From a virus (Duplodnaviria; Heunggongvirae; Uroviricota; Caudoviricetes): a stretch of 52,005 bases of DNA. The position numbers are program-made. Below are positions 46,701 to 52,005 of the stretch, in pieces. Positions within the stretch are counted from its first letter, which is position 1. Every line of letters begins with the position of its first letter. The stretch lies in IMG/VR virus record IMGVR_UViG_2534681674_000035; one strand, given 5' to 3'.

Positions 46701-49700
46701 CAGGGCAATCATGAAACGCCTGGATGATGTTTGCGGCAAAGCAGGATGGCGCAATGAATACCGCGATATTCCCAACAACGGCGGCGTTGAATGCGGCATA
46801 TCAATAAAGATTGATTCCGAATGGGTAACCAAATGGGATGCTGCTGAAAACACGCAGGTAGAAGCCGTCAAAGGTGGTCGTTCCGGTGCAATGAAGCGCG
46901 CTGCCGTTCAGTGGGGAATCGGTCGGTATCTGTATAACCTTGAGGAAGGTTTCGCACAAACATCTCTCGATAAAAAGCAGGGGTGGCACAGGGCAAAACT
47001 GAAGGATGGAACAGGATTTTACTGGCTCCCTCCATCGCTTCCGGGATGGGCAATCCCAGCATCAGATAACAAACCATCACCAGAAAATACCAACCAGAAA
47101 TCTCCATCGGTTGACTGCGAACAAATCCTGAAAGACTTCAGCGATTATGCGTCAACAGAAACTGACAAGAAAAAACTCATCGAGCGTTATCAGCGTGACT
47201 GGCAATTAATGGCTGGCAACGAGGAAGCGCAGGCTAAATGCGTTCAGGTAATGAACATCAGAGTTAACGAACTAAAACAGGCGGCATAAATGGCAAGCAG
47301 AGGCGTAAATAAGGTGATTATCCTTGGTCGGGTAGGACAAGACCCGGAAGTTCGATACTCACCATCAGGAACAGCGTTCGCTAACCTGACAATAGCCACG
47401 TCAGAACAATGGCGAGATAAAAATACTGGCGAGCAAAAGGAATTGACTGAATGGCATCGTGTTGCTGTATCCGGGAAACTGGCTGAGGTCGTGGGGCAGT
47501 ATGTGAAAAAAGGTGATCAGATTTATTTCGAAGGAATGCTGAGAACCAGAAAGTGGAAAGACCAGTCAGGGCAAGACCGTTACACAACCGAGGTTCATGT
47601 CGGAATTAATGGCGTGATGCAAATGCTTGGCGGCATTGGCGACAGCAAACAACAAGCAGCCAGCAGGCAATCACAGAAGCCACAGCAGCAATCATCACCA
47701 GCACAACACAACGAACCTACGATGGATTTTGACGACGATATACCCTTTGCACCAGTAACTCTCCCCTTCCCTCGTCACGCTATTCACGCAATTTAAGGAC
47801 TTACATGAATCACTTAATGGTTGACCTTGAAACAATGGGCAACGGGCCATACGCGCCAGTTATTTCTATTGGGGCGGTATTCTTTGACCCGAATACCGGA
47901 GAAACAGGAGAAGAGTTCTCGGTAAATATCTCGCTTGAGTCATCAATGCGATATCGGGCGCGTCCTGACGCTTCAACGATTTTATGGTGGATGGAACAGA
48001 GTGAAGAAGCCAGAAAATCGCTAACCAGCAACACTCAAGAGCTTTCAACGGCTCTTTCATGGTTATCTGAATTCATCATAAAGAACGCTAACCACAAATT
48101 CGTTCAGGTTTGGGGGAATGGAGCATCATTTGACTGCGTTATTCTCCGAAACAGTTATTCGCTGACAGGGCAGCCAGTTCCGTGGCAGTGGTGGAATGAC
48201 CGCGACGTAAGAACAATCGTCGAACTTGGGAAGGTAATAGGATTCGACCCTAAGCGAGATATGCCATTCAAAGGAACTCGCCACAACGCGCTTGATGATG
48301 CCATTCACCAAGCCAAATACGTTTCAGCGATCTGGAAAAAGTTAGCTAAATAATCAACAGGAGAAAACCATGCCAGCGCCTCTGTATGGTGCGGATGACG
48401 CGCGCCGCTGTTCCGGCAATTCCGTATCGGAGGTGCTGGATAAATTCAGGAAAAACTACGACAGGATAATGTCGCTACCGCAGGAAACGAAAGAGGAAAA
48501 GGAATTTCGCCACTGTATATGGCTTGCAGAGAAAGAAGAACGCGAGCGAATTTACCAGACATCAATCCGACCATTCCGCAAAGCCACATATACCCACTTC
48601 CCTGAATATATCGACCCGCGCCTGCGTAATTACCGCTCACGCTATGGCGCTATCAGTAATGGTTGAGGAATTAACAATGAAAACAATGAAGCTAAACATC
48701 GACCTCGGCAAATACGTTATTACCGGAACCAAACACGACCTGATTCTTAGTGAAAGAGGAATTATCAAAGAAGGTGAGAATGCAGGGAAAGAAACACTAA
48801 GTCGTATCGGTTATTACAGCAAGTTTGAGCATCTGGTTAAAGAGTTATGCAACCGTGAAATTCTGTTATCTCAGGCGCAGACGTTACAGGATATTCAGCA
48901 GCATATCGAGACTGTATGTGTGTCACTTAGCATGGCTATTGACCAGTTCGTGGAGAGTAAATCATGAGGGGACTTGCATACAATCCCGGCATTCTTCCGG
49001 CAGAAATGATTATTCGCCAACGCGTAAAGCCAATGCCATCGAGAGAGGAATTGCTTAAGAGAAATTCTTTTCCATCAGTGAATCAAAACAAATATCTGAA
49101 TGCGATGTGGCGGAGTGGGAAGAAATGAAACAAATGACACTAATTGAGATGGATGGTTTCCTGAAAGGTGAATGCATCCCACGAGATTTAAAGGTTAACG
49201 AAACAAACGCTGAATATCTTGTCCGTAAGTTCGGTGAACTTGAATCAAAACTAGAAACGGCGTTGCGGGAGTGTCGTTCTGCTGGAATCACGATTGATAA
49301 CCTTGAGGCCAAGTGCGCGGCGCTGGTAGCGGAGAGTGCGGGGATGAAGAAGTTCTGCAAAGACGCTGCATTCGATGCCGATTACGAAGCAGAGCTAGGT
49401 ATGGAGCGTGGTGGATTCAGTGATGCGCTTAACGAAATCAAAACCCCAGCCACCGATGCTTTCCTGGCTGAAGTCCGGGCTAAGGCGTTTGATGACCTTT
49501 GCGCGGCGTTCGTTAAGCACGCGTCGGTGTCCGGGCTGGACGATGGCGACTGCGTTACGGTGAAAGAGGCGACTGACGCTCTGCTGCATTGTGCGGAACA
49601 GCTTCACGAGGGAGTGCATTCATGAGCAACCTACTACCATGTCCATTCTGTGGCGGCGCAGCGCACGTTGCCAGCGAAGCAGATCACCCTGAATATGGCT

Positions 49701-52005
49701 CTGGCGGTCGATTCTATTTCGTTCGATGCGGTACGTGTCGCGCTCAATCTGGTAGCAAATATGCAGCGCCTGGAAATGACTGCGCGATTTTTTATTCAGA
49801 GGTTAGAGCAGAGTGGAATCAGCGAGCAAAGGAGGCAACCAGTGAGCGAAATTGACTATCAGGCACTGCGTGAGGCGGCGGAACGTGCAATTCCAGCAAT
49901 GGAACGCCTGTTAATGTTGCCAGTTGATGATGATTTGTTAAGTGAACAGGAACTTAAAGATTACGGTGTGGATATTGATGCGCTCAACGCCTTCAAATTT
50001 CTGGCCGGACCAGAAACCGTGCTGGAACTGCTGGATGAACGGGAAAGAAACCAGCAATACATCAAACGCCGCGACCAGGAGAACGAGGATATTGCGCTAA
50101 CAGTAGGGAAACTGCGTGTTGAGCTGGAAGGCAAAGACAGCAAAATAGCCAATCTTACCGCCGAACGCGATGCTCTTCGTGAAGGTGAGATGGGCGACGC
50201 TAGGCATAGCAACACACGGGCCGCAGCTGATATCTACTTCCAACTGGTCGAGGAGTGCGAAATTCCTGCTGGCGGTTCTCTGGTCGAGTACGTTGACGAT
50301 ATGCGCGAGAAGCTGGAATCCGCAGAGAAGCGCATAGCAGAACTGGAGGATCGGGAAATACTGCTCCCGGAACGTAGCAGCATGCTTCATCGAACAGATT
50401 TTCACGATGATTACCAAACGGTAATGGCATACAAAGTTTCTGAAGTCATCGCTGCAATCCGCGCCGCAGGCATTCGCATCAAAGGAGAGTGATATGACCA
50501 CTATAACCGATAAGAAACAGTATCCCAGCAAGCAATATCTTAATGAGCTGATCACCAACATAGAGTTTGCTGCAAGGGCACCAGTTGAAGTCGTGAGAGC
50601 GATGGCAGCAGAGCTACAGAAGCGGCGCGAAGCTGATAGTGCAGAACCTGTAAGCCAAACTTACAAGTTGCCAGTTAATACACCTTGCCAAGATGCGCCA
50701 GCCCATATCTGGCTGCAAACGGCTGGAGTATGGCCAGAAGATGGCGAGTTAAGCGAATTAACGTGGTGCAGCCACAATCAGCACCATGATGACACGCTAT
50801 ATGTTCGAGCTGACCTTGTGAATGGCAACTCTCCGGTAATTCCGGATGGTTGGATAAGCTGTAGTGAGCGAATGCCGGATAAGTTAATTCCGGTAATGGT
50901 CATGTATGAAGACGGTGAGATGTGGTCTGCAATGTGGAATGGTAATCGCTGGGATGATGGCACCGAATATCCGGATCCGCACTCAGTTACGCACTGGCGT
51001 GAAATGCCAGCAGCACCGAAGCAGGAGGTTAACCGTGGCTAACCTGCAACTTGCCGTTAAAGGTGAATACTTCGATGCCATGATTCGCGGAGAGAAAACG
51101 GAAGAGTATCGCCTGTGTAATGACTACTGGAATAAGCGAATTATGTTCCGGGAGTATGACCGCCTGATTATCACAAAGGGATATCCGAAGCGCGACGATT
51201 CCAGCCGTAGAATTGATGTTCCGTATGACGGATATGAAATCAAGACAATCACACATCCGCACTTCGGCGATAAACCGGTAAAGGTGTTCGCGATAAAGGT
51301 GAATATCGGCAATGAATAACAATCCTCGCACTCGCGGGGATTTCTTTTATCTGAACTCGCTACGGCGGGTTTTGTTTTATGGAGACAAGAAATGTCAGAT
51401 TTGGCTATGAAGGTTTTGAAATGGCAATCGACTGGCGATGTTGGCATCAGTAGCGCAACTCTTGCCTCAATCGCATGTGGACTGAAAAAGAATATCTATG
51501 GTCATAGCTTCGGCGCTCCACATGACGCAGCAGACTTCCGGCGATGCGTTGCACTTGTTGAGCAGATTCCAGAAATCAGAGATTCATTCGACAAGGTTGC
51601 AAAGCGCGTTCCGGCATTCAAAGGAATCCTCAACGAATGGGATTCACTCGTTGCTCTGTTGAAGTCTGAAATGAAGACGTACGGGAACAAAGCACCAGAG
51701 ACTTACAGAAGAATCAGCGAGCTACGCAAGGACTAACGCCTCACACTCGATGAGGCCTGTACATATCTGATAGAGCCGCTATATGGCGGTTTATTTTTGC
51801 CTGGAGAATTAAGATGACCGATACCAGCCTGATTCCTGAGAAAGAAGTGATGAACAAGCTCGGTGTTTCATCACGTCAGACAATCTGGAACTATACCAAA
51901 CGGCACGGATTTCCGAAGCCAGTCAGAACCCACCCCAAATCATACCTTCGTGAAGCTGTTGAAGGGTGGATTCTTAACGGTGGCGTTAATCAGAAATGCT
52001 CCTGA

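Follow-up and report, generated by a model that had tools for sequence, protein, structure and literature searches.

An Oad2/EaE-family protein beside an Abc2 recombination module in a lambdoid Escherichia coli prophage: a putative inhibitor allele in a partly supported anti-defence island

Which functions are encoded by the small genes that come after the recombination genes in a lambdoid prophage's early-left region, and are they directed against host defence? This question is raised by a tailed-phage sequence of 52,005 nucleotides, IMG/VR virus record IMGVR_UViG_2534681674_000035, the whole of which is referred to as the window in the following. On its plus strand, the interval 48370-49855 is flanked by a gene for a DnaQ/Rv2179c-type 3'-5' exonuclease (47805-48353) and by an Ead/Ea22-like gene (49842-50492), exactly the position in which a sequence-only reading had recognized a candidate anti-defence island: a Lar-family zinc-finger gene surrounded by three unknown proteins of 98, 96 and 166 amino acids. 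This proposal is partly supported by our analysis, which found one known gene that had been mislabelled, one interesting allele of an inhibitor family, and one tight and unexplained pair, Abc2 and DUF2737. All four open reading frames (ORFs) are present; the interval comprises five genes, not four, a 54-residue DUF2737 gene having been missed. Of the three supposedly unknown proteins, the 98-residue one is the recombination protein Abc2 and the 96-residue one belongs to the DUF5405 family, which leaves the 166-residue protein, a member of the Oad2/EaE family.

We regard this 166-residue protein as a new allele of the Oad2/EaE inhibitor family whose inhibitor activity is putative. The family has been connected to P2 OLD, an abortive-infection tRNase that is switched on when RecBCD is compromised: OLD is triggered by gp33 of phages HK75 and HK446 and by the whole HK75 locus (gp33, 'Erf', gp31, Abc2), and it is countered by gp27 of HK446, named Oad2, which binds OLD and blocks its activation. 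A HK75 homologue with 54% identity to Oad2 fails to inhibit OLD, and Oad2 is related to EaE of P22 (10.64898/2026.07.10.737580). The same report calls the region a hot spot in which genes against host defence are linked with recombination loci, in agreement with the earlier assumption that the early-left region is enriched for counter-defence genes. Our own comparison of HK446 gp27 with HK75 gp28 yielded 53.9% identity, which reproduces the published 54% and thereby confirms that HK446 gp27 is Oad2.

The window protein matches phrog_614 (1.7e-54); a Pfam search with it gave no match and a PDB sequence search returned nothing. It shares 64% identity with HK446 gp27 over 137-138 aligned positions and 67% with HK75 gp28 over 123 positions, and this similarity is distributed very unevenly along the chain, which is composed of a conserved N-terminal module (residues 1-75), a variable middle (76-106), the junction TPATDAFLAEVRA (107-119) and a C-terminal domain. 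Residues 1-75 are near-identical among the window protein, HK446 gp27 and HK75 gp28 (about 96% compared with HK446 gp27), and the TPATDA junction is identical in the window protein and HK446 gp27. Moreover, both of these proteins are acidic and helical, and they occupy the same place in the same locus order, Abc2-DUF5405-DUF2737-Oad2-like. The order in HK446 is gp33-Erf-gp31-Abc2(gp30)-gp29-gp28-gp27, and the Abc2, 96-residue and 54-residue proteins of the window are 98%, 98% and 96% identical to HK446 gp30, gp29 and gp28, respectively. In contrast, the middle segment and the C-terminal domain of the window protein are unrelated in sequence to those of HK446 Oad2: Beyond the junction no meaningful similarity is left, and the type of C-terminal domain differs. 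From HK75 gp28, too, the window protein departs in these two parts, having in common with it the N-terminal module and, nearly unchanged, the junction. The HK75 homologue gp28, which is inactive against OLD, has diverged from Oad2 to a similar level as the window protein.

This architecture recurs across the family, whose members form more than 7,800 clusters at 90% identity, every one of which carries the label 'hypothetical'. Roughly 900 E. coli genomes hold the family, and the window's allele is carried by strains 2313 and 2013C-4974, among others. Its ends are invariant, its centre is hypervariable (the insert there ranges from 0 to about 80 residues), and the C-terminus comes in two or more types; invariant ends around a hypervariable centre are as expected of an arms-race interface. 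As the N-terminus is common to the active and the inactive homologue, it must be the variable part that decides on activity. In just this part, which sets the active Oad2 apart from the inactive HK75 homologue, the window protein is an allele of a third type, which may act on P2 OLD, on another system or on nothing. The invariant TPATDAFLAEVRA motif (49443-49481) separates the hypervariable middle from the exchangeable C-terminal domains throughout the family and may serve as a recombination joint for the shuffling of modules. Related motifs are found in Serratia (ETPATDAALAAIR; junction ETPATDA) and Kluyvera (ETSATDTARAALRA; junction ETSATDT), in both cases in a coiled-coil protein encoded upstream of a homologue of the Lar-like gene.

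Upstream of the 166-residue protein lies the recombination module. Its last member is the 98-residue protein, which is Abc2, a known gene: It matches PF11043 (4.7e-61, 203.4 bits against a cut-off of 25) with residues 1-97 of 98 aligned, as well as phrog_656 (1e-55), and aligns over residues 1-97 with P22 Abc2 in PDB entry 8B1T, chain A (also 8B1U), at about 90% identity (E 2e-55). The protein is 98% identical to Abc2 of HK75, too. Abc2 attaches to RecC and turns RecBCD to the service of the annealing protein made by the phage, and its Pro68 is placed in the active site of PpiB (Wilkinson et al., PMC9836394); this PpiB site is kept in the window within the motif IRPFRK. As shown by homology to these characterized proteins, the window Abc2 would likewise bind RecC and re-purpose RecBCD. 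It resembles P22 Abc2 in the full-length alignment, in Pro68 and in being placed last in the recombination module, and differs by one extra residue (Tyr80) and by its partners, which are a Rad52-type annealing protein, a single-stranded DNA-binding protein (SSB) and a DnaQ-like exonuclease instead of Erf, Arf and Abc1. In a 2025 survey of lambdoid phages, anti-RecBCD is one of four functions of the Rec module (PMC12315714), and the combination of anti-RecBCD, SSB, nuclease and annealing protein found in the window corresponds to the 'ES18 functional type' of that survey. An assignment of the flanking exonuclease as lambda Exo was rejected in favour of the DnaQ/Rv2179c-like type.

The order within the module is gp33-like protein, Rad52-type annealing protein, SSB, DnaQ-like exonuclease and Abc2. 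The annealing protein is 99.6% identical to HK75 gp32, the SSB is 99.4% identical to HK75 gp31, and the gp33-like protein is 90% identical to HK75 gp33 and 87% to HK446 gp33 (tblastn, blastp). Because the gp33-like, annealing, SSB and Abc2 proteins are 90-99.6% identical to the OLD-triggering locus of HK75, the window holds a probable trigger set together with a member of the inhibitor family. The gp33-like ORF (46324-46482) is without annotation in the RefSeq record of strain 2313, described below, and the final 8 residues of its product are unlike those of HK75 and HK446 gp33. It is overlapped in another frame by a 56-residue ORF (46403-46573), which corresponds to the ORF annotated in HK106 as 'Sf6 gene 29-like'.

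Since the early-left genes lie in close succession on the plus strand, their coordinates are given here one per line, with the evidence for each assignment.

about 46008-46190, plus strand: cIII, early-left gene of the window
46175-46327, plus strand: kil, early-left gene of the window
46324-46482, plus strand: gp33-like small acidic protein, 52 residues (tblastn/blastp against HK75 and HK446 gp33), outside the interval coordinates
46582-47289, plus strand: Rad52-type single-strand annealing protein (Pfam PF04098)
47290-47796, plus strand: SSB (identity to HK75 gp31)
47805-48353, plus strand: DnaQ/Rv2179c-like 3'-5' exonuclease (Pfam PF16473)
48370-48666, plus strand: abc2, P22-type anti-RecBCD protein 2, 98 residues (PF11043, phrog_656)
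48677-48967, plus strand: DUF5405 protein, 96 residues (PF17399)
48964-49128, plus strand: DUF2737 protein, 54 residues, isoelectric point (pI) 11 (PF10930)
49125-49625, plus strand: EaE/Oad2-family protein, 166 residues, acidic, predicted all-helical (phrog_614)
49622-49855, plus strand: Lar-family zinc-ribbon protein, 77 residues, start MSNLLPCPFCGG (PF14354)
49842-50492, plus strand: Ead/Ea22-like protein, 216 residues (PF13935, 2.5e-29; same coordinates in RefSeq)

Each of the five interval genes is preceded by a Shine-Dalgarno-like sequence, and stop and start codons overlap by 4 nucleotides (ATGA) or 14 nucleotides at four junctions. A scan of 45800-52005 revealed neither a promoter-like nor a terminator-like site on the plus strand between 46024 and 51321, where shuffled controls lead one to expect about 9 promoter-like sites across the whole scanned stretch. 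From the ribosome-binding sequences, the overlaps and the lack of such sites we conclude that the ORFs are real genes in one early-left transcription unit. We propose that the five genes are translationally coupled and co-expressed from the pL (early-left) operon early after infection or induction. The Ead/Ea22-like gene begins with a GTG start codon preceded by AGGAGG, and it is followed by mosaic 'ea' genes for DUF551, ASCH and phrog_1229 proteins and by a xis-like gene. Three minus-strand ORFs (48446-48640, 49055-49360 and 49395-49619) were dismissed as non-coding: Their products are of low complexity and antisense to the genes, and no promoter-like site precedes them. The segment 48300-50000 contains no repeats beyond short ones at chance level.

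A prophage that adjoins sbcB in E. coli strain 2313 contains nearly identical DNA (99.9%), and the RefSeq record of this strain lists the five products as 'phage anti-RecBCD protein', 'DUF5405', 'DUF2737', 'hypothetical protein' and 'Lar family restriction alleviation protein'. The locus is thus largely ordinary, a mosaic segment that is common in the lambdoid prophages of E. coli and Salmonella and has been annotated before; both the concept of an anti-defence hot spot and most of the gene annotations already exist. The five interval proteins gave no match at E<=0.01 in a PADLOC scan of ten neighbouring proteins, among which no defence-system component was detected, and for this reason we no longer took the cluster for a defence system encoded by the prophage.

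The profile search that the earlier reading had recommended for each ORF thus placed Abc2, DUF5405, DUF2737 and the Lar-like protein by Pfam, and the 166-residue protein by phrog_614 only. Its view of the neighbouring genes as anti-defence candidates holds for Abc2, which acts on RecBCD, and for the 166-residue protein by family, and finds no support in DUF5405 and DUF2737. The comparison of gene content across relatives, likewise recommended, offers a different perspective on these two. We collected 64 viral contigs with an Abc2 at least 97% identical to that of the window and at least 2.5 kilobases of downstream sequence, and found 48 gene orders among them. The Oad2 N-module is present in 30 of these contigs, the HK446-type C-terminus in 18 and the window-type C-terminus in 8; furthermore, a mere 2 of 4,338 E. 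coli records cover at least 80% of 46500-51800. DUF2737 follows Abc2, with at most a DUF5405 gene in between, in 58 of the 64 contigs, and does so in all 6 loci obtained by searching species-representative genomes with Abc2, including Shimwellia and Intestinirhabdus, a sample that is useful for this linkage and too small for statistics. Overall, 64 of 70 loci have DUF2737 after Abc2, in spite of extreme mosaicism on both sides. The interval therefore spans a boundary: The conserved abc2 and DUF2737 genes, with DUF5405 as an optional insert between them (16 of the 64 contigs), belong to one side, and hypervariable cargo begins with the Oad2-like gene.

Because it is almost never separated from Abc2, the DUF2737 protein (PF10930, 2.6e-31, 107.7 bits against a cut-off of 25) is probably tied functionally to Abc2 or to the recombination module. 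The DUF5405 protein (PF17399, 24.6 bits against a cut-off of 21.6) was modelled as four strands and a helical hairpin with a predicted local distance difference test score (pLDDT) of 91. The model has no homologue among solved structures; its matches among the predicted structures of BFVD are DUF5405 proteins (template modelling (TM) score up to 0.85), and the fold recurs in predicted structures of phages of Gram-negative and Gram-positive hosts, which suggests that DUF5405 is a widespread family of small phage proteins. In the literature, we found no functional study of DUF5405, DUF2737 or gp37/gp38 of HK97. Both proteins might assist the Rec module in recombination or replication, in the manner of Arf and Abc1 of P22, and not be inhibitors of immunity. 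For DUF2737, this notion draws on the linkage to Abc2 in 64 of 70 loci, which holds regardless of which annealing protein or downstream cargo is present, and on its very basic character; for DUF5405, on its place inside the abc2-DUF2737 block, on a very weak Foldseek match of its model to the PC4-like ssDNA-binding protein of phage T5 (E=1, TM 0.34) and on the label 'replication initiation protein' that PHROG gives to the family. Taken for both proteins together, we consider it rather doubtful.

The fifth gene of the interval encodes the Lar-like zinc-ribbon protein. Here the earlier assignment survives in part: The ORF is real and passes the threshold of Pfam Lar_restr_allev (PF14354; 1.4e-9, 38.5 bits against a cut-off of 28.6), and the protein proves to be a distant member of the family, one that does not reach the NCBIfam cut-off. 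It carries the motifs CPFCG...CGTC and, C-terminally, WNQR, with C7, C10, C37, C40 and W65-N-Q-R68 present; in an alignment that includes Lar of the Rac prophage and the Lar-family protein orf98, the positions C7, P8, F9, C10, G11, C36, W65 and R68 are invariant. A PDB sequence search returned nothing. With Rac Lar the protein has in common the zinc-ribbon CPFCG...CxxC, the C-terminal WNxR and the PF14354 match, as well as its place: Each is encoded downstream of recombination genes within a lambdoid element's early-left operon. It differs in its low identity (26% over 42 residues), in two loop insertions (HPEYGSGGR and KYAAPGNDCAIFY) that mark a divergent subfamily and in its NCBIfam score; moreover, no RalA-like RNA was detected near it.

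The reality of the ORF follows from its homologues in Serratia (64% identity) and Kluyvera (75%), in which only the Lar frame is open. In the window, a 280-residue ORF in an alternative frame (49650-50492) covers nearly all of the Lar-like gene and extends into the Ea22-like gene. In HK106 (3939-4977 of that locus), apparently in ST104 and in others, GenBank/RefSeq annotate this long ORF and leave the Lar-like gene uncalled. We rejected the long ORF as a true gene: Its frame contains stops in the Serratia and Kluyvera homologues, and it is probably an annotation artefact. The Lar-like gene is rare, being present in 47 of 5,426 complete E. coli genomes and in 3 of the 64 Abc2 loci, in the latter always directly after the Oad2-like gene; it also occurs in 12 enterobacterial phage records and, at about 50% identity, in some 100 Vibrio phages.

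What such a protein does is a matter of dispute already for Rac Lar. EcoKI restriction was reported to gain in effectiveness once the Rac lar gene is removed, which speaks against a toxin or liability, and Lar, like Ral, is believed to promote methylation de novo (PMC3177214). The opposite case is that the Lar-like protein is a toxic nucleic-acid binder, similar to a RalR-like DNase toxin, or a protein sensed by an abortive system, and hence a liability or an addiction element. Apart from RalR itself, it can invoke orf98 of Salmonella virus VSt472, which is conditionally lethal in strain ECOR22 and is listed only as a trigger of cell death by Silas et al. (10.1101/2023.04.06.535777); being a trigger in one strain is compatible with counter-defence, as Ocr and Ral are triggers, too. 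Domain architecture also bears on this case: Among 1.8 billion representative sequences, the domain has 338 relatives at E<=1e-3, and among the best 150 of these (CPxCG in 135, W[NS]xR in 139) 124 are longer than 95 residues, with a median of 136, and the domain is mostly N-terminal. This placement in longer, variable proteins suggests a generic binding module. Ten of the longer proteins were scanned, and their C-terminal parts gave no Pfam match except for one DUF551. The DUF551 family is represented in the window as well, two genes downstream of the Lar-like gene. A type I toxin-antitoxin pair like that of Rac would further call for a small antitoxin RNA beside the gene or overlapping it; an Rfam search of 45800-52005 at E<=1 found no RNA and no RalA-like antitoxin, with the presence of a RalA model in Rfam being unconfirmed, and the scan of the same stretch gave no promoter-like site on the minus strand. 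On balance, we consider a toxin or sensed liability possible yet on the unlikely side. By analogy to its relatives, the Lar-like protein may be an anti-restriction factor, a toxin or a trigger.

How can these observations be combined? The explanation we favour, and to which we give slightly better than even chances as a whole, is that the interval is made up of the tail of the recombination module and the leading genes of the hypervariable 'ea' segment in a lambdoid E. coli prophage next to sbcB, and that three steps link them. In the first step, the phage would manipulate RecBCD, as shown for Abc2 and reported for gp33. In the second, host guard systems would sense this manipulation, as reported for OLD. 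In the third, the phage would keep inhibitors of these guards beside its recombination genes, as shown for Oad2 of HK446; the reason for this placement, we infer, is that manipulation of RecBCD sets off guards such as OLD and, by the same logic, some retrons. The 166-residue protein would be the window's member of the EaE/Oad2 inhibitor family, with its conserved helical N-module, fast-changing middle and exchangeable C-terminus, and its most likely action, by analogy to Oad2, is to bind directly to a defence protein of the OLD type or a similar one and to hold it inactive. As its variable part is of a third type, the target may be different from P2 OLD. Another factor directed at the host or its defence is most likely the Lar-like zinc ribbon, for which the alleviation of type IA restriction via methylation offers a precedent that permits a weak inference. 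DUF2737 would probably be tied to Abc2 or the recombination module, and DUF5405 would be an optional cargo gene.

The region as a whole also invites a comparison with the accessory regions studied by Silas et al. and with the exo-xis region of lambda, with which it shares variable small early genes between conserved anchors. Accessory regions as described by Silas et al. mix counter-defence genes with triggers of host cell-death systems, and their screen included Abc2 and Abc1 together with one Lar-family and one DUF5405 protein; the window's own 166-residue, DUF2737 and Lar-like proteins are outside the screened set (10.1101/2023.04.06.535777). Lambda and Stx phages provide a different precedent: Ea22 favours lysogeny and the exo-xis genes alter induction (PMC7093339, PMC3824215). 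The genes after abc2 could accordingly be modulators of the lysis-lysogeny decision that act on host physiology or phage regulators instead of defence, like ea22, orf60a, orf61, orf63 and orf73. They occupy the equivalent position between recombination genes and xis and are transcribed early, an Ead/Ea22-like gene follows immediately downstream, and the 166-residue protein shares PHROG families 368, 14548 and 492 with the Ea22-like protein. Nevertheless, the five proteins have no homology to orf60a, orf61, orf63 or orf73, the only characterized close relative of the 166-residue protein is an OLD inhibitor, and the extreme diversification of its family suits an arms race better than the regulation of the phage's own switch. 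We therefore hold this alternative to be distinctly improbable.

Several points weigh against the guard-inhibitor explanation. The account of OLD and Oad2 comes from one unreviewed preprint of July 2026. The 166-residue protein is unlike the active Oad2 in its middle and C-terminus, and the HK75 homologue shares the N-terminus and yet is inactive, so family membership is without predictive power for activity. The AlphaFold2 model of the 166-residue protein is all-helical with a pLDDT of 44 and is unusable for fold comparison or for an interface. As to the Lar-like protein, its only NCBIfam match, anti_R_Lar TIGR03655, scores 29.4 bits and remains under the cut-off of 39.6; its identity to tested members of the family is about 26-30%; Rac Lar has been described as RalR, a non-specific DNase (endodeoxyribonuclease) toxin of a type I toxin-antitoxin pair (PMC4041452); and orf98, a strain-specific trigger, is unnamed among the counter-defence hits of the screen (10.1101/2023.04.06.535777). 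The DUF5405 protein included in that 200-gene screen is outside the genes with a reported phenotype. Finally, an IS629 copy that lies antisense to pL may lower the expression of the whole operon and be polar on all interval genes.

A more far-reaching reading would join all parts of the cluster. In it, EaE/Oad2 would be a polymorphic inhibitor scaffold with a constant N-module and interchangeable specificity modules, and the window variant, which tends to travel with the Lar-like gene, would neutralize a RecBCD guard other than P2 OLD, for instance another member of the OLD/ABC-ATPase-TOPRIM family or a retron. DUF2737 would be an unrecognized obligate partner of Abc2, and the cluster would form a self-contained cassette that manipulates RecBCD and silences the alarm. 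That all of this applies together is unlikely in our estimation.

If the 166-residue variant were active, it would provide a third natural allele beside the active Oad2 of HK446 and the inactive gp28 of HK75, all with a common N-module. These three alleles would form a ready series for domain swaps with which to map how nucleases of the OLD family are held inactive, and they would allow one to ask whether each allele is suited to a host guard system of its own. The tight pairing of Abc2 and DUF2737, which is close to obligate, in turn points to the 54-residue protein as one that the re-purposing of RecBCD by Abc2 may not be understood without.

Two further features of the window lie ahead of the genes discussed so far. 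The copy of IS629, an element of the IS3 family, occupies about 44561-45870, is flanked by a 3-bp target duplication (GCA) and is oriented antisense to pL transcription. It is inserted between an N-proximal gene of 83 residues and the tL/cIII region, and the corresponding prophage segment of strain 2313 is free of it. The 83-residue ORF (44265-44516) is one residue off orf60 (AFM76313.1), an accessory gene in the 2023 screen of Silas et al. that is absent from the genes named with a phenotype in the consulted passages, and it resembles gp42 of HK106 and p20 of VT2-Sakai.

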